Below are positions 10,529 to 26,392 of a DNA stretch of 64,000 nucleotides, piece after piece. The notes below the pieces were generated by a model that worked only from the letters and a program-made list of their open reading frames with translations, was not told the origin of the DNA and did no database searches. Where the stretch lies: NCBI GenBank assembly GCA_002011125.2, contig MTMF02000009.1, positions 1,000,989 to 1,064,988 of the forward strand, given 5' to 3'. Every line of letters starts with the position of its first letter. Position 1 is the first letter of the stretch. The translations under genes were made by a program, and so were the position numbers. Source of the DNA: Candidatus Hydrothermarchaeum profundi. Lineage in GTDB: Archaea; Hydrothermarchaeota; Hydrothermarchaeia; Hydrothermarchaeales; Hydrothermarchaeaceae.

Positions 10529-11713
10529 ATGCGTTTTGCACATCTTTCAGATACTCACCTGGGCTATAGGCAATATAATCTCGATAAGAGAGAAGATGAT
10601 TTCTACAAGGCGTTTCATAAGTGCATAGACAAAATAATAGACGAAAAATGTGATTTTGTCATTCACTCAGGGGACCTATTCGATGAACCTAGGCCGCATA
10701 TTAGGGCCTTGGTAGAAGTCAGAAAAGCAATAGATAAACTTCATGATTCGGGCATAGAATTTATTACAGTAGCTGGCAATCACGACATTCTAATGAGAAA
10801 GGGGTCTCTAATACCTCACGCACTTTACAAGAGAATAAAAGTTCTTACACCAAAAAACCCAGTAAAAGTTATTGGAGATGTTTTTATCGGAGGGCTTCCA
10901 TATCACTCGAAAATACATATTAATGCATTAAAAGACTCCCTTAAACTTCTATCCAAGAAATCGCAAGAATATGGGAAAAGAATATTGGTCATGCATCAGG
11001 GGATAGATAAATATTTTGGGTTGGAATACGAGCTAAAGTTTGGAGATGTCCCTAAGGGTTTCGACTATTATGCTTTTGGGCATATTCATAAGAGAATAGA
11101 AGACGAATTTGAAGGGGGAAAAATAGTTTATCCAGGGTCTACTGAGATCTGGAGAGTAGATGAATTAGTTGATTTTGAAAAGAATAGGAAAGGCTTTGTT
11201 TTAGTTGATACCGATGATTTTTCAATTAAAAGAGTAGATATAGACATTAGGCCCTTCATAAAGCTAGAAGTTGAGTCAACTTTTGATCTTAACGAAATTA
11301 AGCATAGGATAGCAGGAAAGAAAAAACCTATTTTATATGTTACTGTTAAAACAGATGATCAGAGATATCAAACTATATATAGAGAGCTGAATAGGGAACT
11401 AAGTAACAAAGTTCTTTATATCGACATAAAAAAGAAAAATATTTCAAAAGAGGAAACTCGTTTTACAGAGGCAGTTGATTTAAGAGACCTCATCAATGAA
11501 ATGATGGAGGGTTATAAAGGAGAGGAAAAGGATTTTGCATACAGTCTTTTTAAAACACTTTCCTCTGGGGATATAGAAGCTGCTTTCACTTTAACTGAAG
11601 ATTTCTATCGGGTATGGGATTCTAATGCCCAGGATATAAAAAATAGAGGCAAGGCAGAGGCACCAAGTAAAATCAAAGAAGTATTCCAGAGCAGTTTGGA
11701 GGCTTATAGATGA
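10529..11713 (+). CDS. mre11: DNA repair exonuclease Mre11
   Basis: HLSDTHLG, HSGDLFD, GNHD, GHIH and YPGS phosphoesterase motifs. Overlaps rad50. Confidence 0.93.
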   Translation: MRFAHLSDTHLGYRQYNLDKREDDFYKAFHKCIDKIIDEKCDFVIHSGDLFDEPRPHIRALVEVRKAIDKLHDSGIEFITVAGNHDILMRKGSLIPHALYKRIKVLTPKNPVKVIGDVFIGGLPYHSKIHINALKDSLKLLSKKSQEYGKRILVMHQGIDKYFGLEYELKFGDVPKGFDYYAFGHIHKRIEDEFEGGKIVYPGSTEIWRVDELVDFEKNRKGFVLVDTDDFSIKRVDIDIRPFIKLEVESTFDLNEIKHRIAGKKKPILYVTVKTDDQRYQTIYRELNRELSNKVLYIDIKKKNISKEETRFTEAVDLRDLINEMMEGYKGEEKDFAYSLFKTLSSGDIEAAFTLTEDFYRVWDSNAQDIKNRGKAEAPSKIKEVFQSSLEAYR

Positions 11714-14082
11714 TTATCCAAGAAGTGAGCATTAAAAACTTTAGGTCCCATAAGAATACCTCACTTCAGTTCAAAGAGGGGATACATGTTATTGTAGGAG
11801 ATAATGGCTCAGGTAAAACTAGCATCTTAGATGCTTTGAATTTTGCGCTATTCAAACAGAAGTCAAACAAGGAGGTAAATATAGATAACCTTATTAGAAG
11901 GGGGGCATCTGAGTGTATCATTTCCGTAGTATTCCACTCTAACGGTAGGAAGTATAAAGTGATTAGAGGCAGGAAAATCGGAAAAGCTTCAGGAAGTGCT
12001 ATTTATCGAATTGACAATGGAGAAACACTCATCGCAAGAGGAGAGGATGAAATAACCAAAGAAGTCGAAGAAATTCTCAAGGTTAATGGAGAGTTATTCA
12101 CTAGCGCTATTTACATAAAACAAGGAGAAATTGACAGTCTGATTTCGGCTACCCCTTCAACTCGCAAAGAGCATATAGGAAAACTCTTAGGCGCAGAAGA
12201 TCTGGAACGTGCTTATCAGAGGATGTATGATATTTTGAAGGAATATCGAATAAAATTAGAGGGCTATGCTTCTTTGCCTGAAGAAATAAATGAACGTAAA
12301 AATAGGATTAAAGAAGAAGAAAAGGAGATAGAAATACTAAGTCAAAAGTTAATTGAGGTAAAAAATATTCTAAAAAAGAAAAAAAAAGAATTTAAAAGCT
12401 TAGAAGAAAAAATAGGAAACTTGGAAAAACTGCAAAATCTAGAATCAGAAAAAAAGCTATTAGAAAGCAATTTAGATCATATAAGAGACAACATAGAGAA
12501 AATAACTTCGTCAGAATTAGAGCTTGAAAAGACTAAAGAAGCTCATAGACAATATATAAAATTAGAAGAGGAAATCGAAAGGCTTAGAAATGATAAAAAT
12601 AAACTGTTCGTTATAAAAGAGAGATTAAAATCATTAGAAAGGGAACTAGGCAGCTATGGTGAAAAAATCAAGGAGATAGATGATTTTTTTTCACAAAAGT
12701 TTGGCGATTTAGAAGATATTCTGCCTGAAAAAATTTCGACAATAGAACAGCTGAAGCAAGTGTTGGATAGGAAAATAAAAGACATCAAGGAGGAGAAGAG
12801 AAAAAAGGAAGAAGAGAAAGAAAGTATACTTTCAGAAATCAATGAATATAAAGGACAGAATACTGAGATCCTAAGGGCGAAGCAAGAGTTAGAAAAAGCA
12901 GCTGATAAATGTCCCACTTGCGGTCAAACGTTATCAGTTACTCATAAAAATAAACTTATCAGAGATTATTCTAGGAAGATACGGGAAAATCAAAACATTA
13001 TCTCTGAGAAGGAAGTAAAGATTGAGGAAATTAATGAAGAGATCAAGAGACTATCACACCTATTTGAAGAACTTAAAGGAGTTAACCTAGATCTATTGGG
13101 CTCATATGAAAAAGAAAAGAAAGAGGCAGAGAAAAAAAGAAATGAAATTAAGGAATCTATAAAAGAGCAAGAGGAAAAGCTTAGAACACTTCGGGATGTA
13201 GAGTCTTTTTTAACGCAAAAGGAAAATGAGAAAGAACAGCTTAGGGATAAGCATGAGAGATATATAAGCGCTAAAAGATTTCTGAGGGAGAGGTTACCGG
13301 ATAAAGAAAGGTATCTCAAAAAAATGGAGGTCATCAAAGCGAGGATAGAGAGAATCAAAGGCGAGATGGATAATATATTTGGGGTCATAGGATATGTGCC
13401 TAAAGCTGAGGAGCTTTGGAAAGTTAGAGAAGCTTATAGGAGTAAATGGGAAGAACTTACTAAGCTGGAAAAAATAAAGACAGAAAAAGAATCTATAATT
13501 TTAGAAAAAAAGAAAAAAATATCTATCTATAGAGATGAAATAGAAAAATTAACAAAAAGAAAAATAGAAGGCGAACAGCTCGCAAAGTTTGTTACTTTTC
13601 TAGAAAAAGTCCGCAGTTTTTTCCATAAGGATTGCTTACAAAAAGAGCTTAGAATACGGGCTAGGCCTTTAATAGAAAGGTATACTCGGGAAATATTTGA
13701 CCGTTTCAATCTACCCTACTCAGATTTAAAAATTACCGATGACTTCAATATTGAATTATATGGGCCTCATGGGAAAGAAACTGTTGATATGCTTAGTGGT
13801 GGCGAAAAAATTGCTGCAGCACTTGCACTTAGAATAGGTATTGCCAAAGCGTTATCAGGTCGAGCTATGGAGCTAATCATTCTTGATGAGCCGACTATTC
13901 ATTTAGATGCTCAACGGAGGCAGGAACTAGTAGAAATTATTAGAAGACTTTCCTCTATCCCGCAGACTATCGTAGTAACTCACGATAAAGAGTTTGAGCA
14001 AGCCGCCGATGTTTTAATCGCGGTTGAAAAAGTTAATGGCATCTCTACTGTTAAGCAACTTGAATTAATTCTGGAATCGTAG
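11710..14082 (+). CDS. rad50: DNA double-strand break repair ATPase Rad50
   Basis: GDNGSGKTS Walker A, coiled coils, central CPTC zinc hook, LSGGE signature and ILDEPT Walker B. Confidence 0.93.
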   Translation: MIIQEVSIKNFRSHKNTSLQFKEGIHVIVGDNGSGKTSILDALNFALFKQKSNKEVNIDNLIRRGASECIISVVFHSNGRKYKVIRGRKIGKASGSAIYRIDNGETLIARGEDEITKEVEEILKVNGELFTSAIYIKQGEIDSLISATPSTRKEHIGKLLGAEDLERAYQRMYDILKEYRIKLEGYASLPEEINERKNRIKEEEKEIEILSQKLIEVKNILKKKKKEFKSLEEKIGNLEKLQNLESEKKLLESNLDHIRDNIEKITSSELELEKTKEAHRQYIKLEEEIERLRNDKNKLFVIKERLKSLERELGSYGEKIKEIDDFFSQKFGDLEDILPEKISTIEQLKQVLDRKIKDIKEEKRKKEEEKESILSEINEYKGQNTEILRAKQELEKAADKCPTCGQTLSVTHKNKLIRDYSRKIRENQNIISEKEVKIEEINEEIKRLSHLFEELKGVNLDLLGSYEKEKKEAEKKRNEIKESIKEQEEKLRTLRDVESFLTQKENEKEQLRDKHERYISAKRFLRERLPDKERYLKKMEVIKARIERIKGEMDNIFGVIGYVPKAEELWKVREAYRSKWEELTKLEKIKTEKESIILEKKKKISIYRDEIEKLTKRKIEGEQLAKFVTFLEKVRSFFHKDCLQKELRIRARPLIERYTREIFDRFNLPYSDLKITDDFNIELYGPHGKETVDMLSGGEKIAAALALRIGIAKALSGRAMELIILDEPTIHLDAQRRQELVEIIRRLSSIPQTIVVTHDKEFEQAADVLIAVEKVNGISTVKQLELILES

Positions 14083-14094
14083 TGAAAAATCAGA

Positions 14095-14379
14095 TTAGGC
14101 TAGCTTTTTTAGAAACTCATCGACAGGTATTATGGGGAAAGTATTCGTTCTTATAGTACCTCGGGAAGCTAATTCTACCATCGCAGCAGCTACGATTACC
14201 TCATTAGGCGCCTCTACAATGTTTAGGAAATCGTAGTTCCCTAGTACAACATATTGTTCTATAACTTTTACTCCCATTTTCTCTAGTTCGGAATTAACTT
14301 CTTTTACTCTGTGTGGATTCTTCTTTAATGTTCTAGCCCCCTCGTCTGTTAAACTAGAAACGATCATATACAGCGGCAA
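14095..14379 (-). CDS. GYD domain protein
   Basis: LTDEGARTL...LGNYDFLNIVEAP...RGTIRT pattern. Strong SD (GGAGGTGA) before the TTG. Confidence 0.8.
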   Translation of the reverse strand: MPLYMIVSSLTDEGARTLKKNPHRVKEVNSELEKMGVKVIEQYVVLGNYDFLNIVEAPNEVIVAAAMVELASRGTIRTNTFPIIPVDEFLKKLA

Positions 14380-14558: not shown

Positions 14559-14573
14559 CGAAATCTTTATATA
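14559..14573 (+). promoter_or_regulatory. Archaeal BRE/TATA promoter of the apr-sat operon
   Basis: CGAAA followed by TTTATATA, about 35-55 bp upstream of the candidate aprA starts. Confidence 0.6.
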
Positions 14574-14576
14574 CTA

Positions 14577-14613
14577 CTTAACGATAGTTAAGTGAATTTT
14601 AACGATTGTTAAG
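14577..14613. promoter_or_regulatory. Two tandem palindromic operators TTAAC-N4-GTTAA (21-bp spacing)
   Basis: CTTAACGATAGTTAAG (14577-14592) and TTAACGATTGTTAAG (14599-14613), directly downstream of the TATA box. Confidence 0.6.
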
Positions 14614-16336
14614 GAGTGTTTGTAAATTGGAAATCGATACCGACCTTCTCATTATAGGTGGTGGCACAGCAGGTTGCCTTGCAGCAGTTGAAGCTAAAGA
14701 GCTAGATCCAGATTTAAAAGTCACAATTCTAGAGAAAGCACATATAGAAAGAAGTGGATGTCTCGCAGGCGGGATAAATGCAATTAATGTATACATCCAT
14801 GAAGGAGAGTCTCCTGAAAGTTATGTAAGGTGGGCACGCTGGTATGCCATGGGTTTACTAAGAGAAGACCTAGCCTTAACTATGGCTAGAGAGATAAACA
14901 AGGCTATAGAGAAGGTCGAGAAGTGGGGCTTACCTATACCCAAGGATGATAAGGGCCGATATCTAAGAAGAGGGCGGTGGGGGATTCATGTTTTTGGAGA
15001 GTCTATAAAACCCATTCTCGCGAAGGCAGTAAAAAATGCTGAGGTGGATGTATATAATAGAGTAGTGGTAACAAATCTTCTGACTAAAAGAGAAAAGGTT
15101 ATTGGAGCGGTAGGGTTTGGAGTTAGAAATGGAGACTTCTACCTGGTAAGAGCGAAAGCTACTATCGTTGCAACAGGCGGAGCAGCAGGACTTTATAAAC
15201 CTAAAAATGATGGTGAAGCCCATCATAAAATATGGTATTCGCCTTTTAACACAGGAACAGGTTACGCGGTGGGGATCAGAGCTGGTGCTGAGATGACAAG
15301 CTTTGAAATGAGGTTTAATGCTATTCGTATAAAAGATGTAAACGCGCCGATTGGCACCATAGCTGTTGGTTTTAATGCACCGGTCATTAATTCTAAAGGT
15401 GAAAAATTTATGCAGAAAAACTATGCGCACTTAGGAGGCGAGGCAGCGCCAACTCCACTGCGAGTACATGGGCCAATGGAAGAAATAAGAAATGGTAGAG
15501 GACCATGTTATATAGATACTCGGAGGTTAAATGATAAAGACTTGAGACGTTTGAAAGAAGAATATCTCGACGAATATCCCACACTAGTATTGTATCTCGC
15601 TTCAAACGGTATAGATCTTAAAAATAGGTTTCTTGAGATCTACGGCACAGACCCATATATTGTTGGTGGGCATTGTAACGCGGGGTATTGGATAAATACT
15701 GATCGATCAACTACGTTAGAAGGTCTATATGCAATTGGAGATGTTGCTGGTGGAGCTAGCAGTAAGTTCGTGGGAGGTTGCTTCGCTGAGGGTATTATAG
15801 CAGCTCGCGCAGCTGTTGATTACATATGTAACAAAAATGCTTTGGAAGAAGTAGATCCAGAACTGGTAGATAAAGAGAGGTATAGAACTTTTGCTCCGCT
15901 ATGGAGATATAAAGAAGGAAGACATGGGCCTACTCCTAAGGAAATGGAACTAAGATTGCAAAAAGTTATGGATGAGTATGTGGGCGGTGTACATCAGTTT
16001 TACTTGATAACTGAAAAAGGGCTAGAAATAGCTAAAATTGAGATTAAGGCACTTAAAGAGCAAGCAGAGAATCTTATTGCAAGAGACCTTCATGAACTCA
16101 TGCTTGCGCATGAGTTAATAGATAGGTTAGATGTTGCTGAAGTGCTTATTCATCATCTCCTATATCGTAAAGAGACGAGATGGCCGGGATTCCAGGATCG
16201 GGTAGAGTATCCACATTTAGACGACAAGAATTGGCTGGTATTCGTAAACTCTAGAAAGAATCCTAAGACCGGAGAAATAGAGGTTTTTACAAGGCCTTAT
16301 GAGCAAATTGTCCCAGGGGATAGGTACAATCCATGA
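14606..16336 (+). CDS. aprA: Adenylylsulfate (APS/PAPS) reductase alpha subunit, AprA-like flavoprotein
   Basis: IIGGGTAGC FAD motif, RSGCLAGGINAIN, WYSPFNTG, GAEMTSFEMRF and RKETRWPG. Followed by AprB and Sat. The start may be TTG 14627. Confidence 0.9.
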   Translation: MLRSVCKLEIDTDLLIIGGGTAGCLAAVEAKELDPDLKVTILEKAHIERSGCLAGGINAINVYIHEGESPESYVRWARWYAMGLLREDLALTMAREINKAIEKVEKWGLPIPKDDKGRYLRRGRWGIHVFGESIKPILAKAVKNAEVDVYNRVVVTNLLTKREKVIGAVGFGVRNGDFYLVRAKATIVATGGAAGLYKPKNDGEAHHKIWYSPFNTGTGYAVGIRAGAEMTSFEMRFNAIRIKDVNAPIGTIAVGFNAPVINSKGEKFMQKNYAHLGGEAAPTPLRVHGPMEEIRNGRGPCYIDTRRLNDKDLRRLKEEYLDEYPTLVLYLASNGIDLKNRFLEIYGTDPYIVGGHCNAGYWINTDRSTTLEGLYAIGDVAGGASSKFVGGCFAEGIIAARAAVDYICNKNALEEVDPELVDKERYRTFAPLWRYKEGRHGPTPKEMELRLQKVMDEYVGGVHQFYLITEKGLEIAKIEIKALKEQAENLIARDLHELMLAHELIDRLDVAEVLIHHLLYRKETRWPGFQDRVEYPHLDDKNWLVFVNSRKNPKTGEIEVFTRPYEQIVPGDRYNP

Positions 16337-16342
16337 GGTGAT

Positions 16343-16660
16343 ATGTTGACCATCGTGATACACCATGAAAAATGCACTGGGTGCAAAGGCATGAAAGAAC
16401 CTCTATGTGTAAAGCTCTGCCCAGGAGACCTTATAATGATAAAAAATGAGAAGTCCTTCATCCGAGACCCCGGAGATTGTTGGGATTGTATGGCATGCGT
16501 AAAATCATGCCCTTACGGCGCTATTGAAACCAAGCTTCCTTATGAGCTGGGTTATAAAGATGCGCATTTGATTCCCAAGAGAAAAGGGAAGATAATAGTC
16601 TGGGAGCTTGTTTACTCAGACGGCCGAAGGGAAGTATTTGAGAGGCAGGTGAGATTATGA
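16343..16660 (+). CDS. aprB: APS reductase beta subunit, short 2x[4Fe-4S] ferredoxin
   Basis: CTGCKG...LCVKLCPGD and CWDCMACVKSCP. 105 aa, without the long C-terminal tail of dissimilatory AprB. Confidence 0.85.
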   Translation: MLTIVIHHEKCTGCKGMKEPLCVKLCPGDLIMIKNEKSFIRDPGDCWDCMACVKSCPYGAIETKLPYELGYKDAHLIPKRKGKIIVWELVYSDGRREVFERQVRL

Positions 16661-18450
16661 GGCAAACTCCAGTTGGAGGCAGATTAGTTAACAGAGTATT
16701 AAAGGGCAGAGATAAAGTGAGAGCTAAAGAAGCAGCGGCTAACCTCCCAAAAATCAAGATTGAAAATGATATTATAGTCACGCTTGAGATGATAGCTACT
16801 GGAGTGTTGAGTCCGTTAGAAGGATTTCAGGGATACGAAGATTATAGAAGCATATTAGAAGATAAAAGACTTGCTGACGGTACACCCTGGACAATCCCCC
16901 AAATATTCGCTCCGAATATAGAGTCAACTAAGAGTCTAGACGAGATTAAGGAAGGGGAGGATATAGCTCTTATTGGAAAATCAGGAGAACCCATTGCTTT
17001 ACTACATTTGGAGGAGAAGTTTACTATCGATAGAAAAGAAATGGTAGAATATATTTTTGGTACGAGTGATAAATCTCACCCAGGAGTTAATTATGTTTAT
17101 AGGAAGGGAGAAAGGGCTTTAGCAGGAAAGATAGATCTAATACACAGACCTTCATGGGGCCCATTTGAGAAATATAGACTTGAGCCTAAAGATACTTGGG
17201 AAATATTTAAGGAAAGAAACTATGAAACAGTAGTAGGATTTCAAACAGCTAACCCTCTCCATCGGGGCCATGAGTATTTGCAGAAATGTGCATTGGAAAT
17301 ATTTGATGGGATATTTATTAACCCAATAGTTGAAACCACCCGACGGGCGTATTTTAGAAATGAATTCAGGATAAAAGCATACGAGGAGGCTATCAAGGTC
17401 TACTATCCGGAAGATAGAGTAGTTTTTGCACCGCTCAGACTAATAATGCAATATGCTGGACCAAGAGAAGCAGTAATGCATGCCTTGATAAGGAGAAACT
17501 ACGGATGCACGCATTTTATTTTGGGAAGAGATCATGCAGGATACAAAGATTATTACCCGAAATATGCATCTCAAAAAATATTTAAAGAGTTTGAAGAGGA
17601 TGAGCTTGGGATAACCCCCTTATTCTTCCGAGAAGCCTTTTATTGCGCTCGTTGCGCTAATCTAGCTACAGAGAAGACATGTCCTCATGGTAAAGAATAC
17701 CATATTACTATGAGCGCCTCTATAATCCAGGATATTTTTAGGTATGGCTATCTCCCTCCAAAAGAAGTAATGCGGCCAGAAGTTTCACAGATAGCAATAC
17801 AGGGAATCCAGCCAAAAGGGCTTGATGAGACTGGACATGCATTAGAATCTCCTGGAGCAGCAATAAAAGGCATGTTTCCATTCTATATAACCCACTACAG
17901 GCTTGGAGGATATAAAAGGGACAGACCGCTAGACGTTAATTCCCTTACAGTTGCGGATATCCGCAGGGCGCTTCTTGATGTAAGGATTAACGCGAGTAAG
18001 ATATACGAAGAAATCTATGAGACGATTGCTTATTATTTCGATATATCCCGGGATTTGGTTGCTAATCGTAGAGGAGAGGCTTTAGAACAGTCGGTGGATA
18101 GGCAAATTAGATTGATTAAAACTTTGAAGGAAAAAGTTGAGGGTGCACCAGAATCTGTACAAGACCCATTTATGTATCAAGATAAAAACGAGGCCAAAAA
18201 AGAATTAGATATAGCTCAAAAAATATTAAACGACCTTTTCAGGTATAGGCCCAAGGATTTTGGTATAAGAATCTGGAATCCACTAGAATATGAGAGGTAT
18301 CGACATTCTTCGATTGCAACCTCTTCAGTTTATCCGAATATAATCTACGATAAAATGAACCGGGCTAGCATAGAGGACGATGCGAAACCTAATGCATCTA
18401 TCGCCGTCGCTGAAGCAGATTGGAATTATGAAAAGAGGGTAAGAAAATGA
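16657..18450 (+). CDS. sat: Sulfate adenylyltransferase (Sat)-like protein with extra C-terminal domain
   Basis: GVLSPLEGF, HPGV, FQTANPLHRGHEY, YAGPREAVMHALIRRNYGCTHFILGRDHAG and a YCARC...CPH zinc site. Confidence 0.85.
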   Translation: MRQTPVGGRLVNRVLKGRDKVRAKEAAANLPKIKIENDIIVTLEMIATGVLSPLEGFQGYEDYRSILEDKRLADGTPWTIPQIFAPNIESTKSLDEIKEGEDIALIGKSGEPIALLHLEEKFTIDRKEMVEYIFGTSDKSHPGVNYVYRKGERALAGKIDLIHRPSWGPFEKYRLEPKDTWEIFKERNYETVVGFQTANPLHRGHEYLQKCALEIFDGIFINPIVETTRRAYFRNEFRIKAYEEAIKVYYPEDRVVFAPLRLIMQYAGPREAVMHALIRRNYGCTHFILGRDHAGYKDYYPKYASQKIFKEFEEDELGITPLFFREAFYCARCANLATEKTCPHGKEYHITMSASIIQDIFRYGYLPPKEVMRPEVSQIAIQGIQPKGLDETGHALESPGAAIKGMFPFYITHYRLGGYKRDRPLDVNSLTVADIRRALLDVRINASKIYEEIYETIAYYFDISRDLVANRRGEALEQSVDRQIRLIKTLKEKVEGAPESVQDPFMYQDKNEAKKELDIAQKILNDLFRYRPKDFGIRIWNPLEYERYRHSSIATSSVYPNIIYDKMNRASIEDDAKPNASIAVAEADWNYEKRVRK

Positions 18451-19307
18451 TAGATCACGAGAATATAAGGATGGAAATCCAACAAAAGCAAGAGGGATAT
18501 GGAGTATTGAGAGCACCAACGTTTGGTAGGATAACATCTCAACAGCTTAAAACGCTAGCTAAAATCTCTAGAGAATTTGGTGATGGCTACGCATTACTCA
18601 CCATGAGGAAAGGATTCGAGATACCTTGGATAAATAGAGAGAATTTTGGGAAAGCCCTCTCAGAGATTGAAAAAACGGGTCTAAAAGTAGGGTCTAGTGG
18701 GAATACAGTAAGATCCATACTTCCCTGTGCTGGTCAGGACAGGTGTCCTTTTGACATACTGGAGGTAGGTGTGTTAACCAAGAAAATAAGAAATGAACAC
18801 TATGGCAGACCTATGCCTATGAAATTTAATATAACTCTTTGTGGTTGTCCGAACTATTGTACTCATCCATATCTGAGTGATATAGGGATAATAGGCAGAG
18901 CACGCCCTAGAGTGAACGAGGACAAATGTATAGGTTGTGGTCAATGTGTAAGACTCTGCCGCGGAGATGATGGTGGAGCACTACGTCAAGTAGATACGAA
19001 TGCACCTGAAATTGATTACGAAAAGTGTATAGAGTGTGGGTGGTGTATAAAAAACTGCCCTACTGGTGCAATGGAAGCAGAGAAGCAAGGATGTAGTATA
19101 TTGGTTGGAGGCAAAGGCGGAGCAAATCCAAAACTTGGTGTAGAGTTAATTAGAATAATATCTATAGAAAAGGTAGGCCGTGTTTTAGAGAGAATCGTTC
19201 AATATACGGAGGAATATTCTAGTAAAGGTGAAAGATTGGCTGATGTAATTGAAAAATATTCGTTTGAACACTTTAAGAATTATGTGTTAGGTGAAATCGA
19301 TGACTAA
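18447..19307 (+). CDS. Dissimilatory-type sulfite reductase-like protein (Dsr-LP/AsrC-like) with ferredoxin domain
   Basis: Siroheme-[4Fe-4S] motif CAGQDRC...GCPNYC, ferredoxin CIGCGQC...CIECGWCIKNCP, and VGGKGG. Confidence 0.8.
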   Translation: MIDHENIRMEIQQKQEGYGVLRAPTFGRITSQQLKTLAKISREFGDGYALLTMRKGFEIPWINRENFGKALSEIEKTGLKVGSSGNTVRSILPCAGQDRCPFDILEVGVLTKKIRNEHYGRPMPMKFNITLCGCPNYCTHPYLSDIGIIGRARPRVNEDKCIGCGQCVRLCRGDDGGALRQVDTNAPEIDYEKCIECGWCIKNCPTGAMEAEKQGCSILVGGKGGANPKLGVELIRIISIEKVGRVLERIVQYTEEYSSKGERLADVIEKYSFEHFKNYVLGEIDD

Positions 19308-20001
19308 AGTTAGAGGAAGAATTGGCTTATTAGCTCAAAGGCAGAAAGATTACGTAACCATCAGGCTAAGGATACCTTTGGGAAAACTTACGGCAGAGCA
19401 GATGGAGGGAATATCCCAGATCATTGAAGAATATGGAGACGGCTATGCTATACCGACTATTCGTAAAAGCCTAGAAATACCTTGGGTCAGATTTGAGGAT
19501 TCTAATAAAGTTCTAAAAGAGTTAAGGAAAATGGGTCTCTCGGCAGGCTCATGCGGGAGAAAAGTGAGGACAATAGTGGCATGTGCGGGATTAGGACATT
19601 GCATCCATTCTCATAGAAATCTAGAGAAAATGTACTATAAGCTCCTCGGAAATTATTACATGAAAGATACTCCCACTAAATTTAAAATATCCCTCTCCGG
19701 GTGTCACCTTGCTTGTAACCATCCTTATATTAATGACTTTGGAATTATTGCCACTGAAGATGGCTTTTCAATCCTTGTAGGTGGAAAGGGTGGTAGACAC
19801 CCCCAGTTTGGAAAGCTGATAGTTGAAGGAGTATCTGAGGAAGAGGTATTCAATATTCTTGATAAAACCTTGGAATATTTCAGAAAGTATGCTCAAGGCA
19901 GAGAGAGGATTTATGAAGTTATAAAAAGAAATGGCGTAGACCATTTTAGAGGATACGTGTTAGAGGGGGTGAAAGCTTGGCCAAGAGATTCGAAGAATTA
20001 A
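19300..20001 (+). CDS. Nitrite/sulfite reductase-like protein (Dsr-LP) without ferredoxin domain
   Basis: QRQKDYVTIRLRIPLG, CAGLGHC...KFKISLSGCHLAC, VGGKGGR and ERI motifs. ATG 19300 follows SD AGGTGA. Confidence 0.8.
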   Translation: MTKVRGRIGLLAQRQKDYVTIRLRIPLGKLTAEQMEGISQIIEEYGDGYAIPTIRKSLEIPWVRFEDSNKVLKELRKMGLSAGSCGRKVRTIVACAGLGHCIHSHRNLEKMYYKLLGNYYMKDTPTKFKISLSGCHLACNHPYINDFGIIATEDGFSILVGGKGGRHPQFGKLIVEGVSEEEVFNILDKTLEYFRKYAQGRERIYEVIKRNGVDHFRGYVLEGVKAWPRDSKN

Positions 20002-21026
20002 AAAAAGAAGTGATAGACAAAGGTTTTTGTGTACACTGTGGTGCTTGTAGCGCATTTTGCAATCGCATAAAGCTTAATGCGTCTCCACAGCTTGTCGGGA
20101 AATGTGTGGAGAGCTGTTCATCTCCTTATGGAACTGATGGGGTATGTTATGAGCATTGTCCAATGGTTAAAAGCTTTGATGAAAAACATATCTTTCAAAG
20201 GAATACTTCCGATCCATTAGGGATATATATTTCATTAAAGTCAGCTCGTGCTCATGATAATAGTCTTAACGGTGTTCAGGATGGAGGTGTTGCAACAGCC
20301 TTGCTTAAGGCAGCATTTGAAGATGGAGAGATAGATGCAGCTATCGTGGTAGGTAGAGATGAGCTATGGAGAAGTCAACCTAAAATAGCGTGGTCGGTTA
20401 AAGACTTAATAGGTACTTCTGGGTCTAAATACACTGAAACGCCTGTTATAGAACTCGTAGGTAAACTTTCTCGAGAAGGCGCAAGTAGTGTCGCAGTTGT
20501 CGCTGTGCCATGTCAAATACAGGCGCTCCGGAATTTAGAATACGGGCTTCTCTATCCAAATGGGTTCTCCCCTTACTCAGACATGATGCTGTACACGATA
20601 GGCTTGTTCTGTTCAGGTGTATTCAACTATAAAGAACTTGTAAATAGACTTGATGTAGACTTGAAATATGTTGATAAAATGGACATAAAGGATAGTAAAT
20701 TTAAAGTGGAAGGGAAAATTACCAAAACTTTGCCTCTTAGTAGAGTAAAAAAAGCTTTATTACCCGCATGCAAATATTGCAGGGACTACACCGCAAGACT
20801 CGCTGACATATCTTTAGGCTCTGTAGGGTCCCCAAAAGGTTGGACTACAGTAATCGTTAGAAATCCAAATGGAAGCTGGCTGTTAACAAATGCTAAAAAT
20901 TTAGGATTAATAGAGGTGAAGCGAGGTCTAAGTGAAAATGTACTAAGAACTCATGTTGATAAAAGAATAAAAAATGTGAGTAAGGAATGTATGAAAGCTA
21001 ATGAGATTCCGCCTTCATTTAAGTAA
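19977..21026 (+). CDS. Coenzyme F420 hydrogenase/dehydrogenase beta-subunit family protein (FrhB/FpoF/Fsr-N-like)
   Basis: CVHCGACSAFC, CYEHCP, QDGGVATALL, GSKY, PCQ, IGLFC and CKYCRDYTARLADISLGSVGSPKGWT. Confidence 0.88.
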   Translation: MAKRFEELKKEVIDKGFCVHCGACSAFCNRIKLNASPQLVGKCVESCSSPYGTDGVCYEHCPMVKSFDEKHIFQRNTSDPLGIYISLKSARAHDNSLNGVQDGGVATALLKAAFEDGEIDAAIVVGRDELWRSQPKIAWSVKDLIGTSGSKYTETPVIELVGKLSREGASSVAVVAVPCQIQALRNLEYGLLYPNGFSPYSDMMLYTIGLFCSGVFNYKELVNRLDVDLKYVDKMDIKDSKFKVEGKITKTLPLSRVKKALLPACKYCRDYTARLADISLGSVGSPKGWTTVIVRNPNGSWLLTNAKNLGLIEVKRGLSENVLRTHVDKRIKNVSKECMKANEIPPSFK

Positions 21027-21375
21027 AACAGGCATCGCAATCGTTTGGCACTATGCTGGCTTCTTTATGCGGGCCGCAAAGAGTTTTATCTGATTTTGCA
21101 GCTTCACATATTCTACATATCTCTTTATATGGGTTATGTTTTTCTCCAGAGATTATCTTATCAGCAAACTCAGATATAGCGGCTTTAGCATTTTCTTTGA
21201 GTTCAATTTTTTTCCCACGCTTTCCTTTCAAATATTGAGAAACAGCCGCTTCTGTAACCCCCATTACTGATGCCACTTCCTTCTGACTCATCCCGCGGCT
21301 GATTAGTTCTTTTGCTAGGTCTGATTTTATTGCCGGTAAAACATACCATACTACTAATTCACAGGGAGCTTTCAT
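21019..21375 (-). CDS. HTH transcriptional regulator with Cys/His-rich termini (COG2522-like)
   Basis: PCELVVWYVLPAIK, GMSQKEVA...TEAAVSQYLKGKRG, ICRIC, LCGPH and CDAC. Confidence 0.85.
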   Translation of the reverse strand: MKAPCELVVWYVLPAIKSDLAKELISRGMSQKEVASVMGVTEAAVSQYLKGKRGKKIELKENAKAAISEFADKIISGEKHNPYKEICRICEAAKSDKTLCGPHKEASIVPNDCDACFT

Positions 21376-21838: not shown

Positions 21839-22321
21839 ATGAAACCAAAGAAAATAATAACCATATCAGTCGTGGTGGTTCTTCTCCTATTTGTATACTA
21901 CTCAATGAATGCTGCTCCTCTAATAAGCGATGAAAAGTATACTTACATTAGCGGTTTGAGATGGTACAATACCTTCGAAGAAGGTCAAAGGGTTGCGTTA
22001 GAGCAAAATAAACCTATCTTTATTTATTTCTGGGCGATATGGTGCACATACTGCGAAAAATTACATACTGAAGTTTATCCAAACCCGGAAATCAATAGGA
22101 TCTTAAAAGAAGACTATGTACTTGTAGCGGTGGATCTAGATACTAACAAAAAAGATGCAGCTAGATTTGGAGCAACGTATCCTCCAAAGCTTGTGTTCAT
22201 TACGCCAGATGGTGAAATAATAACTGAAATTGGAGGTTATGTTCCAGCGGAATCTCTACTTCCTGTTCTACAAAATGTAAAAGCCTTCTATCAAAATAGA
22301 ATTAGTTCCGGTGGTGGTTAA
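21839..22321 (+). CDS. Membrane-anchored thioredoxin-family protein (SoxW/CcmG-like)
   Basis: N-terminal TM, WAIWCTYCEKL CxxC, and a cis-Pro region YPP. Confidence 0.85.
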   Translation: MKPKKIITISVVVVLLLFVYYSMNAAPLISDEKYTYISGLRWYNTFEEGQRVALEQNKPIFIYFWAIWCTYCEKLHTEVYPNPEINRILKEDYVLVAVDLDTNKKDAARFGATYPPKLVFITPDGEIITEIGGYVPAESLLPVLQNVKAFYQNRISSGGG

Positions 22322-24667
22322 GTGAATCTAGGTAATCTATTGCTATATAGTGCATTTTCCATCGGGTCTTTGATTATTTTATTATTATTGATAAATCTAA
22401 TCAAGAACATTCAAGTTGAAAGATATGTTCAATGGCTAGTGAGAGCTTTTTTTATGATATTACTCGCGGATATGAGTCTGCTTACTTACTATTTCATCGT
22501 GAGCGATATTTCAGTAAATTACGTATGGACATTTACGAGTAAGTATCTCCCACTTTTATACAAATTATCTGGCGTATTGGCTGGACAACAAGGAACACTA
22601 TTATTCTGGGCATTTTTAATAAGTATAAGTGCTCTATGGATTAATGAGAGAAAAGAGTATAGCGATTTTATAAAAAAAGTCCAGATAATTGTATTGTTAC
22701 TAGGATTATTCTTTATTGCTTTAACGATCAAAGAATCACCTTTTATCACGATATATGATCTCTATCCAGACTTACCGAGAGATTTCCTTCCAGAAGACGG
22801 CGCTGGACTTAATCCCCTTCTAATCGACCCTTGGATGGCTGTTCATCCTCCGGTAATTTTTATAGCTTATGCAACTATGACTATTCCTTTTGCAGTCGCC
22901 GTAGTTTACCTTATTAAGTCTATAAAAGAGGACACCTTAAAAGTGTATAGTGAATGGAGTCATATTGTGACCTTCTGGTGCAGGATTTCTTGGCTTTTTC
23001 TTACATGGGGGATCGCGGTCGGCGGTTTTTGGGCCTATAAAGTACTCGGTTGGGGCGGTTACTGGGCTTGGGATCCTGTGGAAACATCTTCTCTTATCCC
23101 GTGGATCCTTTTGACAGGAGCTCTCCACGCTCTATCCGAAAATAGGAAAAAAAAGGAGAGTTATAATATATTAGCTCCAGTGCTGGTTGCGTTGTCTTTT
23201 TCACTAGTGGTATACGCTACATTAGTTACTAGAAGTGGATTTTTTGAATCCGTGCATGCCTTCAGCACCGGGCAAACAGGATTTTATCTATTAATTTTGG
23301 TTGTAGTGAGCATACTGGTTTCTCTCATTTTAGGAAGTATAAAGTACGTTAAGAGAGTTGATAGGCACGTAGAAGATATTGATAATGGAGAGATTACTCT
23401 GGTGAATAGGACAAATATATTCTATCTTGCAATATTATTGTTTGTAATATTAACTTTTATATCCTTCTGGGGGATCACATTTCCGGCGTTGACAAAACTA
23501 GCTATGGGGAAAAAAATTGGTATGGGTATTTCGTTTTTTAATATTTGGAGTTATCCTTTTATAATATTGCTAATGCTTTTCGGCGGACTAGGGCTAAATT
23601 ACAAGCATTCTGAAAAAAAGAAGCAACTACGAGTATTCGGTTTATTTATCCTCATTACTTTGATAGCGGCTGTAATTAAGCCCTCAGAATCATGGAAAAT
23701 TGTAGAATATTCCGCCATCATCAATCCCGAAAAGCCATTTCTATATAGGCTGATTGGCGGTGCCTCCCCCTTAAGCATAATACCCCCTTCTATTTACCTG
23801 ACTTGGGGTGCGAGTGAAAGGCTTTTGCGAAGATTTAAGAGTAAGTCCATGGAGCTAAAAATAAAGGAAGTAGGGATTTTTATCATACATGTCGGAGTTG
23901 TTTTAATCATAGCTGGTTCTGTAGTTAGTACTCTTTTCGATAAAGAGTTCAGTACTAGAGTCACTATAGGAAATTCTGAGCTTGTACGGATTGAAGGGAC
24001 CCCTTATGCGGTTAAACTTCTTGGCTTTGACACAGAGGTAGTATATATAGAAGATTCTGCGAGTAATGATATACCGGGGGATAGTCTAGATGAATTTTAC
24101 ACGAAAATCGGGGAAGAGGATGTCTATTTAGTGCATGGTAAGGTAGAGGAAACTGTACAAACGGAACATAATACTTATATGAAACTTGTAGATAACGGCA
24201 GAGAGTTATGGGTCGCTACTAATAGGGTAGACATCCCTAAGGGTGCCCTAGTTGTACTATCTGGAAATGTGATGTTTGATTTTGCAAGTCCAACTTTAAA
24301 CAGAGTTTTCGATATAATACTTTTCGCTCCGCATGTAGAGGTATATAGTATGGAGCCTGAAAGATATTCGACAACAGAACTAGTTAAAGTAGCGGTATAC
24401 AATGGCCATAACAAAATAGGGGAGGGTACTGCTAAGTCGATTACCTATAAAAATGGAAATGTCAACAAGGTAATGATTGATAGATCATTGACTAAGGATG
24501 TTTATGTTATCTACACAGGAAAGAACGGCCAAGAAATACCTTTAACAATTAAGATTAAGCCGTACGTAAGCTGGACTTGGGTAGGTGTGGTGTTGTTTTC
24601 GGTGGGCATACTTTTTATATTATTTTTTGATCCGGTTGTTAAAGAGAGGAGGTATCAAGCTGAATAG
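22322..24667 (+). CDS. ccmF: Cytochrome c biogenesis heme lyase CcmF with C-terminal inserted domain
   Basis: GQQGTLLFW, GLNPLL, HPP, WGGYWAWDPVET (WWD domain), TRSG..ESVHAF and IIHVG. Confidence 0.92.
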   Translation: MNLGNLLLYSAFSIGSLIILLLLINLIKNIQVERYVQWLVRAFFMILLADMSLLTYYFIVSDISVNYVWTFTSKYLPLLYKLSGVLAGQQGTLLFWAFLISISALWINERKEYSDFIKKVQIIVLLLGLFFIALTIKESPFITIYDLYPDLPRDFLPEDGAGLNPLLIDPWMAVHPPVIFIAYATMTIPFAVAVVYLIKSIKEDTLKVYSEWSHIVTFWCRISWLFLTWGIAVGGFWAYKVLGWGGYWAWDPVETSSLIPWILLTGALHALSENRKKKESYNILAPVLVALSFSLVVYATLVTRSGFFESVHAFSTGQTGFYLLILVVVSILVSLILGSIKYVKRVDRHVEDIDNGEITLVNRTNIFYLAILLFVILTFISFWGITFPALTKLAMGKKIGMGISFFNIWSYPFIILLMLFGGLGLNYKHSEKKKQLRVFGLFILITLIAAVIKPSESWKIVEYSAIINPEKPFLYRLIGGASPLSIIPPSIYLTWGASERLLRRFKSKSMELKIKEVGIFIIHVGVVLIIAGSVVSTLFDKEFSTRVTIGNSELVRIEGTPYAVKLLGFDTEVVYIEDSASNDIPGDSLDEFYTKIGEEDVYLVHGKVEETVQTEHNTYMKLVDNGRELWVATNRVDIPKGALVVLSGNVMFDFASPTLNRVFDIILFAPHVEVYSMEPERYSTTELVKVAVYNGHNKIGEGTAKSITYKNGNVNKVMIDRSLTKDVYVIYTGKNGQEIPLTIKIKPYVSWTWVGVVLFSVGILFILFFDPVVKERRYQAE

Positions 24668-25382
24668 TGAGCCATCATTTGTCTTAGCATTCCTTGCTGG
24701 ACTCTTAACGGTTACTACCCCTTGTGTCATCCCAATCCTCCCCCCAATGTTAGCCGGATCTATCGGTCATAAGCTTAGACCTTTTTTTATTGTATTAGGA
24801 AGCTCCATAACGTTTACCTTAATGGGGGGAGCTTTCGCAGCAATAGGCCTCTTAGCGTCAGGGGTTACAGAATATATGAGACTATTTTTTATTTTCTTTA
24901 TCATAGCTTTTGGAGCAGTAATGGTGGATGAAGATATCAATAAAGTATATACGAAATACGCAACAGTTGTAGTCAATAGATTATTAAGTCGAAAAGGAAG
25001 TAATTCCTCAAGAAACTTTCACCCACTAGTAGGAGCTTTTGTGTTAGGGCTTTCTCTGGGTATAGTGTGGATTCCATGCGTCGGCCCTATATTGGGGGCT
25101 GTACTTGCATATGCTTCAACAACAGCTAACTTAGCTAAGGGGTCTCTTTTGTTGATGACGTATTCTTTTGGGCTTGGACTTCCGATGCTTGGGATAGCTT
25201 ACGGGGGCAAATATGCTTCTGTAAAAGTAGAATGGGTTAAGGTCCATTCTATTACGATAAGAAAGATTGCTGGATGGGTAATTATCCTCACAGGGATAGC
25301 TATGCTCTTTGGTCTTGATAGACTTGTACAAGCTGGTCTTACTCCGTATTTCCCGAGTTTTGAAGAGAGGTTGCTAAAATGA
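24660..25382 (+). CDS. ccdA: CcdA/DsbD transmembrane electron-transfer protein
   Basis: TPCVIPILP and WIPCVGPILG Cys pair. Probable CTG start at 24660 after SD GAGGAGGT. Confidence 0.88.
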   Translation: MNSEPSFVLAFLAGLLTVTTPCVIPILPPMLAGSIGHKLRPFFIVLGSSITFTLMGGAFAAIGLLASGVTEYMRLFFIFFIIAFGAVMVDEDINKVYTKYATVVVNRLLSRKGSNSSRNFHPLVGAFVLGLSLGIVWIPCVGPILGAVLAYASTTANLAKGSLLLMTYSFGLGLPMLGIAYGGKYASVKVEWVKVHSITIRKIAGWVIILTGIAMLFGLDRLVQAGLTPYFPSFEERLLK

Positions 25383-26392
25383 GTGAAAAGGGAGACCGCT
25401 TTAAGATAAATTGGGGGCATAGGTATCTTATAATTGTGGCAGGGCTTTTCTTTATTGCTGGATTCTCATCAGGGTATGTGTTCTTTAGTGATGGAGAAAA
25501 TGAGAAAATTTGTCCATTTAGTTTTAATATAACCCTGTCTAATGAACTCTTTGCTGATGTCATTGGTGAAAAGGCAGCGAGTTATGTAGATGAAAAATTT
25601 CTAAGGCCGCAAGGAGCTTCAGGGGAACTGGTAAAAGTTGAGAGCTATGGGGATAGTCTCTATAGAGTTATAATACGTGCTACTAAGGAGGGTGTTACTC
25701 AGACGATTTCGTTACTCGCTACAAGAGATGGTAAGTTAATACTACTAGGTGAGGGCGGAGGCGTGGTCGAGATTCCAGAATCCTATGAAGCAAACCTCAC
25801 TTTTAGGGAGGTAGCTAAAACTGATGCTATCTACATAACCTCAGGATTGGAAATAAGACCAGAGATGGCCGCATATATTCGGGGATCAAAAGATGCTCCT
25901 ATAACTTTTGTAGAATTCAATGATTTTCAGTGTCCATTTTGTAAAAGGTTCAGGGATCAGAGTTTAGATCTTATTCTAACAAAATATGAAGGAAAAATCC
26001 GTTATGTTCTTTTAGATTTCCCTATTACTTCAATTCATCCTCAAGCACCTCTGGCACATATTGCCGCTAGGTGTGCGGGTGAACAAGGAAAATACTTCGA
26101 ATATCATAACAAGCTCTTTGCTAAACAAGAAAGTTGGTCTAGGATGCCTCCAGATTCTGTAGAAGAGATAAATGAGTTTGAAAGCTACGCAGTTGAGCTT
26201 GGATTAGATGAGGTGAAGTTTTCTCAATGCCTAAACTCAAGAAAGTATGAGAACGCGGTATTATCAAACATGGAGATAGGAGCTAGAGCGGGTGTTACAG
26301 GAACTCCAACTTTCTTTATAAACGGTCAGAAAGTCGGTGGAGCGCAACCTTATCAAGTCTTCGAATCTGTCATAGAATCTCAACTAAGTTAG
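25379..26392 (+). CDS. DsbA-family thiol-disulfide oxidoreductase, membrane anchored
   Basis: FVEFNDFQCPFC, DFPITSIHPQA and GVTGTPTFFING. Confidence 0.9.
   Translation: MSEKGDRFKINWGHRYLIIVAGLFFIAGFSSGYVFFSDGENEKICPFSFNITLSNELFADVIGEKAASYVDEKFLRPQGASGELVKVESYGDSLYRVIIRATKEGVTQTISLLATRDGKLILLGEGGGVVEIPESYEANLTFREVAKTDAIYITSGLEIRPEMAAYIRGSKDAPITFVEFNDFQCPFCKRFRDQSLDLILTKYEGKIRYVLLDFPITSIHPQAPLAHIAARCAGEQGKYFEYHNKLFAKQESWSRMPPDSVEEINEFESYAVELGLDEVKFSQCLNSRKYENAVLSNMEIGARAGVTGTPTFFINGQKVGGAQPYQVFESVIESQLS

Follow-up and report, generated by a model that had tools for sequence, protein, structure and literature searches.

Gene organization of the locus

This study concerns six plus-strand open reading frames (ORFs) in a stretch of 64,000 nucleotides from Candidatus Hydrothermarchaeum profundi (contig MTMF02000009.1; the whole 64-kb stretch is hereafter called the window). 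Together they look like an operon for sulfate reduction in which an F420-dependent sulfite reductase (Fsr) is split into separate subunits. A first-pass annotation, made from the sequence alone, had described six tightly packed same-strand genes behind one TATA box. The ORF list of the window gave identical coordinates, and the spacings in operon order are +6, −4, −4, −17, and −25 bases. The first gene (14606..16336) encodes an AprA-like FAD subunit of the short type, 576 amino acids (aa) in length, which scores 721 bits against the NF005331 model. It is followed by the gene of a short AprB-like 2x[4Fe-4S] subunit of 105 aa (16343..16660), whose best solved match is 8A8O_C, and by the gene of a Sat protein of 597 aa (16657..18450), which is over the cut-offs of NF003166 and TIGR00339. 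Next come two dissimilatory sulfite reductase-like proteins (Dsr-LPs): Dsr-LP1 of 286 aa (18447..19307), with PF03460, PF01077, and two Fer4 domains, and Dsr-LP2 of 236 aa (19291..20001), with PF03460 and PF01077 only. The last gene (19977..21026) encodes an FrhB/FpoF-family protein of 349 aa with a Cys-rich N-terminus, in which PF04422 and PF04432 were found. Thus, Pfam and NCBIfam agree with the domain content that had been assigned to all six genes.

The TATA-like box TTTATATA was located by a motif scan at 14566..14573 on the plus strand, 40 bases 5′ of the TTG start codon of the AprA gene, and may be the promoter element of the operon. The sequence GGAG lies just 5′ of position 14627. Since the database twin of this AprA is 569 aa in length, the true start may be at 14627, 21 bases 3′ of the TTG at 14606. 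Positions 16200-21100 of the window are also covered, with zero differences, by a contig from a second study. Thus, the gene arrangement is no one-off product of assembly. The source genome (2.19 Mb, 97.65% complete) groups with Candidatus Hydrothermarchaeota, and its closest homologues carry the names Candidatus Hydrothermarchaeota or Hydrothermarchaeales.

Conservation of the gene cluster in Hydrothermarchaeota

Is this gene order found in other members of the phylum? I searched a set of 38 phylum genomes, 37 of them besides the source genome. Orthologues of the FrhB-like protein (268-463 bits) are present in nine of the 37, and the next matches score at most 204 bits. A Dsr-LP gene adjoins the FrhB-like gene in eight of the nine loci, and in the ninth (G026) the 3.2-kb contig stops after the FrhB-like gene. 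In six of the nine, the AprA, AprB, and Sat genes are adjoining as well, in two different gene orders. One genome (G027) has the gene order of the window, including a convergent gene downstream which is described below. Three others (G028, G032, and G033) have AprA, AprB, a short Sat, one Dsr-LP, and the FrhB-like gene in this order, and two (G030 and G031) have the FrhB-like gene first, followed by AprA, AprB, a long Sat, and one Dsr-LP. The remaining two (G019 and G020) have two Dsr-LP genes and the FrhB-like gene without Apr or Sat. Synteny, which the first-pass annotation had left to be looked up, is thus kept among relatives. To look beyond the phylum, 576 stretches with confirmed FrhB homologues were ranked, and the best 80 were inspected from the FrhB side. 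Such neighbors were found in none of the 76 loci outside the clade, and the four of 80 that have them are contigs of the clade itself.

In G019, and likewise in G020, the FrhB-like gene lies in a one-strand run (L036:2431-8074) composed of two Dsr-LPs, the FrhB-like protein, a one-Cys TusE-like protein, a LarE-like protein (317 bits), a ThrC-like protein (311 bits), and a SAMP1/MoaD-like protein. As judged by these families, the part of the run after the FrhB-like gene is a sulfur-incorporation context.

A proposed three-subunit enzyme resembling Fsr

In Fsr, a ferredoxin region at the N-terminus precedes an FrhB-type F420H2-oxidase and a Dsr-like siroheme-[4Fe-4S] domain into which a 2x[4Fe-4S] ferredoxin is inserted. 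The same parts occur in the products of the last three genes. In Fsr they form one polypeptide, whereas here they are distributed over three separate ORFs with their own stop codons. The fused forms retrieved in a search for longer proteins belong to other organisms. The hosts also differ, since the present one is a non-methanogen as judged by the names of its relatives alone.

The FrhB-like protein has the FrhB_FdhB_N (PF04422, 67.3 bits) and FrhB_FdhB_C (PF04432, 127.8 bits) domains, and its Cys residues 18, 21, 24, 28, 43, 57, and 61 are kept in all of 32 aligned sequences. Its solved matches are 8RIU_B (175.5 bits), the 9TN7 fusion (169.7 bits), the Fsr of Methanothermococcus thermolithotrophicus (MtFsr; 149.7 bits), and FrhB (147.9 bits). 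It is proposed from this resemblance that the protein is the F420H2-oxidising subunit. When the FrhB-like protein and the two Dsr-LPs were co-folded, the model placed the former on the Dsr-LP pair, possibly by likeness to Fsr, with a complex score of 0.80 vs 0.00 for the best of three controls. The runs share at least 65% of the contacts, and the predicted local distance difference test (pLDDT) value of the partner is at least 84. For this score, 116 of 157 solved complexes reach the mark used, as do 2 of 215 mismatched pairs, counts which are only approximate because my own alignments were used. In the model, the Cys-rich N-terminal region of the FrhB-like protein would sit on residues 160-208 of Dsr-LP1. 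This predicted contact between the N-terminus and the ferredoxin insert matches the relay described for Fsr.

Both Dsr-LPs have the siroheme-[4Fe-4S] motif CX5C...CX3C, and the four Cys residues are invariant in the alignments. Dsr-LP1 additionally has an inserted 2x[4Fe-4S] ferredoxin domain of the group III type, and its best solved match is MtFsr residues 356-608 (138.2 bits). Of the four basic substrate residues (R ~357, R423, K460, and K462 in MtFsr), Dsr-LP1 keeps three, the last being replaced by Asn. Among 30 sequences, the position aligned to K462 is non-basic only in Dsr-LP1 (N) and in its G027 orthologue (T). Dsr-LP2 keeps all four basic residues (R, R, K, and K) together with the four Cys residues, and in alignment A3 the ferredoxin insert is cleanly deleted in Dsr-LP2 and in P0261, which is 69% identical. 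The G027 sister of Dsr-LP2 (292 aa) retains the insert. Thus, the ferredoxin insert is missing from Dsr-LP2 and the substrate lysine from Dsr-LP1, which sets the pair apart from Fsr.

Two known families were considered for the Dsr-LPs and rejected. They score 53.7-90.1 bits against the DsrA and DsrB models TIGR02064 and TIGR02066, far under the cut-offs of 392.85 and 341.5, and 143.5 bits against the AsrC model TIGR02912, under its cut-off of 324.1. Neither AsrA nor AsrB is encoded within the operon, the range over which this was checked, no genome-wide AsrAB search having been made.

Duplication of the Dsr-LP gene and complementary losses

In the phylogenetic tree, the 13 Dsr-LPs of the clade and one environmental twin form one group, with a Shimodaira-Hasegawa-like approximate likelihood-ratio test (SH-aLRT) value of 97, or 99 with the mixture model. 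The tree thus indicates that Dsr-LP1 and Dsr-LP2 are lineage-specific duplicates that arose inside the clade. The copies are found in several states. G028 and G030-G033 have one copy, and G019 and G020 have two intact copies. One copy of G027 has lost the lysine; in the source genome, one copy has lost the lysine and the other has lost the ferredoxin insert.

It is known that the relay of Fsr crosses protomers; mainly basic residues from one protomer hold the siroheme, and the coupled cluster is bound by the partner (PMC10229431). If the cofactors are swapped between protomers as in Fsr, both Dsr-LP losses would hit one composite site and leave the other intact. Fsr is a homodimer, whereas a heterodimer of two diverged Dsr-LPs is proposed here. 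By analogy, the pattern fits a Dsr-LP heterodimer in which, as in DsrAB, one active site works and the other is degenerate. DsrAB is likewise a heterodimer of two paralogous siroheme proteins, and only one of its two sites is thought to be working. In this working site, the basic residues come from DsrA and the cluster comes from DsrB. On the other hand, the Dsr-LPs are about 100-150 residues shorter than DsrAB as well as under the DsrAB cut-offs, the operon has no DsrC, and the Dsr-LP duplication is a separate lineage-specific event. The locus may serve as a system for studying the origin of heterodimers with one dead site such as DsrAB.

Does the Dsr-LP/FrhB-like enzyme reduce nitrite or another oxyanion instead, beside Sat and AprAB genes with which it shares no pathway? 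Among solved structures, Dsr-LP2 matches a plant nitrite reductase best (84.8 bits vs 82.8 bits for Fsr). It is known that Fsr reduces nitrite too (PMC10229431), and a homologue of Fsr from anaerobic methanotrophic archaea (ANME) was reported to be a nitrite reductase (PMC9295563). However, the adjacency of AprA, AprB, and Sat in six of the nine relatives, kept in two gene orders, argues against such a chance neighborhood, as do the four sulfite-reductase basic residues of Dsr-LP2. I regard this explanation as highly improbable, and sulfite is preferred as the substrate.

Relationship with Fsr in phylogenetic trees

The first-pass annotation had suggested that the locus resembles a pre-fusion state of Fsr. 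Trees were made quickly with LG+G4, and with a C20 mixture model on 70 rows hand-chosen from 108. Matches were dropped if they spanned fewer than about 220 query positions for Dsr-LP or 230 for FrhB, and so was every second FrhB match from P0035 onward. In the LG+G4 tree, the FrhB-like clade (41 rows; SH-aLRT 99) is placed apart from the N-terminal half of Fsr (SH-aLRT 94). The Dsr-LP clade is likewise apart from the C-terminal half of Fsr in both the LG+G4 and C20 trees. In the trees of both halves, the deep backbone is weakly settled. In approximately unbiased (AU) tests, one clade with Fsr was not rejected for the FrhB half (p = 0.123) or for the Dsr-LP half (p = 0.583; the constrained tree was 7.0 log-likelihood units higher). 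Thus, each half has its own clade apart from Fsr in the trees, and sisterhood with Fsr is compatible with the tests for both. The split arrangement could equally be a pre-fusion state of Fsr, a parallel recruitment, or a fission, as far as the sequences tell.

Susanti and Mukhopadhyay (2012) proposed that Fsr arose via a complex of separate FrhB-like and Dsr-like subunits, and stated that, among archaea, Dsr-LPs occur only in methanogens (PMC3448663). The present locus means that a split FrhB-like/Dsr-like arrangement, of the kind predicted for the origin of Fsr, exists in a non-methanogen lineage and beside sulfate-activating genes. A survey of gene fusion and fission includes the Fsr fusion; its filter needs the split parts to be at most five genes apart in some genome, and the location is not described in the portion of the survey consulted (PMC11237513). 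The three-gene set may also be useful as a cloneable system for studying how electron input modules are recruited to small sulfite reductases.

Sat and the short AprAB

The Sat protein scores 455.4 bits with NF003166 (cut-off 387) and 338.7 bits with TIGR00339 (cut-off 322.95), and its best solved match is the ATP sulfurylase (ATPS) of M. thermolithotrophicus (MtATPS, 8A8D; 324.4 bits). The PUA_2 and ATP-sulfurylase domains lie within residues 4-388. For the C-terminal part of about 200 residues (from residue ~385; positions 17810-18450 of the window), no relative was found in Pfam, NCBIfam, or the Atlas, the Atlas matches being sub-threshold. The long Sat is shared by the source genome (G000), G027, G030, and G031, in all four of which the search for the kinase of adenosine 5′-phosphosulfate (APS) was negative. 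The short Sat is found in G028, G032, and G033, and an APS kinase is present in the latter two.

The AprA-like protein is over the NF005331 cut-off of 557 and under that of the aprA model TIGR02061 (487.3 bits; cut-off 641.75). Its best solved match is the alpha subunit of the 3′-phosphoadenosine 5′-phosphosulfate (PAPS) reductase of M. thermolithotrophicus (8A8O_A; 626.7 bits), while Archaeoglobus fulgidus AprA follows with 407 bits. The AprB-like protein has two 4Fe-4S motifs and lacks the long C-terminal tail of the dissimilatory form; it is 105 aa in length, whereas dissimilatory AprB chains have 150 and 166 aa. It scores 72.2 bits with TIGR02060, below the cut-off of 135.65, and its best solved match is the beta subunit of the same PAPS reductase (8A8O_C, 104 aa; 71.7 bits). 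These comparisons assign the AprAB to the PAPS-reductase type known from M. thermolithotrophicus. Sat, AprA, and AprB are each encoded by one copy in the source genome. Members of the short AprA family occur widely among bacteria and archaea, for example in Nitrospirota, Actinobacteria, Poribacteria, and Hadarchaeales.

The assimilatory pathway of M. thermolithotrophicus comprises ATPS, APS kinase, an AprAB-like PAPS reductase, 3′-phosphoadenosine 5′-phosphate (PAP) phosphatase, and Fsr (PMC10322725). The present operon resembles it in the best solved matches of Sat, AprA, AprB, and Dsr-LP1 (324.4, 626.7, 71.7, and 138.2 bits, respectively) and in the equally short AprB (105 vs 104 aa). It differs in the substrate loop of AprA, in having the last enzyme as separate subunits, and in the APS kinase, for which the search of the source genome was negative. 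Does the operon nevertheless use PAPS, made by an unrecognised kinase or by the C-terminal part of Sat, with AprAB as a PAPS reductase? The nearest solved relative of AprA is indeed a PAPS reductase, and Gly here replaces the Gln residue which in A. fulgidus AprA would clash with the 3′-phosphate (PMC10322725). In addition, G032 and G033 have an APS kinase over the cut-off. On the other side, no APS kinase over the cut-off was found in the source genome (best 31 bits vs 138.7), G027, G028, G030, or G031, and the Sat tail contains no recognisable kinase family. Moreover, the substrate-loop consensus of the AprA family, RGRWNIKIN in 124 sequences, is unlike the M. thermolithotrophicus enzyme. 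I consider the PAPS route distinctly unlikely. Since the loop is unlike both reference enzymes, the choice between APS and PAPS is not readable from the AprA sequence. APS is the likelier substrate because no APS kinase was found. The P-loop kinase at L059:5449-5973, which gave the 31 bits, was rejected as an APS kinase; its best match is to a PSTK model.

Dsr proteins and cofactor genes in the source genome

It had been noted that the window contains no APS kinase, Qmo, DsrC, or DsrAB, and this statement is true for the window. Outside it, the source genome encodes DsrA (454 bits; cut-off 392.85), DsrB (481.6 bits; cut-off 341.5), DsrK (523 bits; cut-off 400), a DsrM-like protein, and a DsrC with both C-terminal Cys residues. 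A second DsrAB-like pair lies at L057:8237-10436 (contig C9, around 126-128 kb); its DsrB is over the cut-off with 389 bits, and its DsrA-like protein is under with 333 bits. This pair adjoins a SoxX-like c-type cytochrome gene and a ccoN-like fragment.

In the nine relatives with the FrhB-like gene, no DsrA match exceeds 98 bits, and three have none at an E value of 1e-20 or better. DsrC is absent from seven of the nine, and in the other two (G019 and G020) the one-Cys TusE-like gene immediately follows the FrhB-like gene. Other phylum genomes, namely G016, G018, and G022, have AprA reading frames of the long type (631-675 aa), and G017 has a partial one. No QmoC over the cut-off was found in the source genome (NF038018, 88.6 vs 300 bits), the search having covered QmoC and not the QmoA and QmoB models. 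Thus, the operon differs from dissimilatory AprAB/Qmo systems both in the AprA and AprB scores, under the TIGR02061 and TIGR02060 cut-offs, and in QmoC.

Genes for cofactor synthesis and use were also found in the source genome. CofH (504.5 bits; cut-off 374.1) and Mtd (381 bits) represent F420, and cysG_Nterm (96.3 bits; cut-off 62.3) represents siroheme. Since these are present, the proposal of an F420- and siroheme-dependent enzyme does not founder on a missing F420 or siroheme pathway.

A proposed soluble route from sulfate to sulfide and its weighing

What the sequences show directly is which families the proteins belong to, the synteny, the residue patterns, and which genes are present or absent. 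From these I infer every activity, the involvement of F420, the pairing of the Dsr-LPs as a heterodimer, and the role in the cell. As a reasonably probable interpretation, I propose that the operon is a soluble, self-contained route from sulfate to sulfide, with a three-subunit Fsr-like enzyme. Sat would convert sulfate to APS, and the short AprAB would reduce the activated sulfate, most likely APS, to sulfite. The three-subunit enzyme would then reduce sulfite to sulfide. The FrhB-like protein would oxidise F420H2 at its flavin, and its Fe-S clusters would hand the electrons on to the Dsr-LP1 ferredoxin insert, from which they would reach the siroheme-[4Fe-4S] site formed by the cluster of Dsr-LP1 and the basic residues of Dsr-LP2. 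The second site of the heterodimer would be degenerate, with the lysine lost and no feed from a ferredoxin. The role is most likely sulfur assimilation and sulfite removal rather than energy conservation. This soluble role is favored because the nine relatives lack DsrAB, seven of them also lack DsrC, the other two have the one-Cys TusE-like gene in a sulfur-incorporation context, and the long AprA occurs in other genomes.

On the other hand, the operon may belong to dissimilatory sulfate reduction. Its Sat and AprAB would supply sulfite to DsrAB-DsrC-DsrMK, and the Dsr-LP/FrhB-like enzyme would be a safety valve for excess sulfite, or a non-conserving electron sink in the relatives without Dsr. 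Points for this are that the only Sat and AprAB of a 97.65% complete genome sit in the operon, and that DsrA, DsrB, and DsrK are over their cut-offs beside a DsrC with both terminal Cys residues. Previous authors also leaned this way. Carr et al. (2019) interpreted the sat, apr, and dsrAB genes found in this phylum as dissimilatory (PMC6775978), and Kato et al. (2019) speculated on dissimilatory sulfate reduction for the MBGE-D cluster (PMC6759336). Against it stand the AprA and AprB scores under the dissimilatory cut-offs, the missing AprB tail, the lack of a QmoC over the cut-off, the occurrence of the long-type AprA in different genomes, and the nine relatives without DsrAB. I judge a dissimilatory function to be rather unlikely. 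Both explanations could be true in the source genome, where a second, respiratory use with DsrAB is possible because the operon holds its only Sat and AprAB.

Returning to the soluble route, several observations weigh against it besides the nitrite reductase match of Dsr-LP2. The source genome itself has DsrAB, DsrC, and DsrK/M, and the operon carries its only Sat and AprAB. The sole characterised member of the short AprAB type prefers PAPS (PMC10322725), and two of the relatives, G032 and G033, carry an APS kinase over the cut-off. Three proteins of the PAPS_reduct superfamily are encoded in the source genome, all under the CysH-type cut-offs. The FrhB family includes members which do not use F420, such as 7-hydroxymethyl chlorophyll a reductase (5DQR; 40.7 bits). 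Because the structure of Fsr is already solved, the passing complex model may reflect likeness to, or memory of, that structure. In addition, the relatives are mostly represented by incomplete genomes (57-96% complete), so that gene absences in them are no proof. In summary, the self-contained route of the first-pass annotation fits the nine relatives without DsrA-level matches, but the source genome departs from it by having DsrAB, the second DsrAB-like pair, DsrC, and DsrK/M.

A bolder scenario may be added, which I hold to be doubtful. The clade might contain a natural multi-subunit form of Fsr that independently replayed the history of DsrA and DsrB. A small sulfite reductase would have been duplicated and turned into an obligate heterodimer, of whose two sites one is catalytic and the other vestigial, and the states of the Dsr-LP copies listed above would be the steps on this path. 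The FrhB-like protein might also feed AprAB, so that the eight-electron reduction of sulfate would run on F420H2. The physiological electron donor of the M. thermolithotrophicus AprAB-like enzyme, which prefers PAPS, is not known according to its description (PMC10322725). If the scenario is true, the feed from the FrhB-like protein to AprAB would name the physiological electron donor of the archaeal short AprAB type.

The cluster of Sat, AprAB, and AsrC/Fsr-C is already known. Kato et al. (2019) described these genes as contiguous in MBGE-D metagenome-assembled genomes (MAGs) without Dsr and noted the CX5C...CX3C motif (PMC6759336). Their cluster is of the same kind and from the same phylum, Hydrothermarchaeota, and one AprA match with 61% identity is named as one of their MAGs. 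It appears that neither this partner nor the two-paralogue form and the complementary losses are described by Kato et al. (2019), as far as the main text and one supplement go; since 'frhb' is absent from these, the F420-type partner seems not to have been reported there. No published description of an FrhB-like partner or a split Fsr in Hydrothermarchaeota was found in the literature searched. Sat and AprAB are counted as markers of sulfate respiration in this phylum. Because most carriers of the cluster lack DsrAB or DsrC, the dissimilatory potential may have been overstated.

Neighboring genes and other loci

The convergent gene downstream of the operon (21019..21375, minus strand) encodes a helix-turn-helix (HTH) protein of 118 aa with a Cys-rich C-terminus (HTH_3, 30.4 bits) and is a candidate regulator. 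It occupies the same position beside the FrhB-like gene in G026 and G027, with 62-68% identity. In G033 and G032, a gene with a Prok-JAB domain is convergent to the FrhB-like gene (L038:7918-8328 and L040:3951-4361, respectively). Directly 3′ of the operon of the window, a cytochrome c maturation set (21839-26392) comprises thioredoxin-like, CcmF-like (781 aa), DsbD-like, and DsbA-like genes. Upstream of the operon, there is a GYD-domain gene on the minus strand (14095-14379), and positions 10529-14082 hold a Mre11-like phosphoesterase gene and a 790-aa ORF labelled Rad50-like by sequence reading alone.

Two other FrhB-like genes of the source genome adjoin genes of HdrA2-like proteins. A cluster at L067:6757-16129 (contig C9, around 296-306 kb) encodes HdrA2 (801 aa, 1112 bits), an MvhD-like protein, a doubled HdrA of 1004 aa, an FrhB-like protein, and an HdrD-like protein, and it has a second, divergent FrhB-like gene. 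Its composition suggests an F420-linked Hdr-type complex. Finally, in each of the relatives G012 (contig C81), G013 (C3), G017 (C7), and G018 (C2), one or two TGA or TAG codons lie in frame within the DsrA match.

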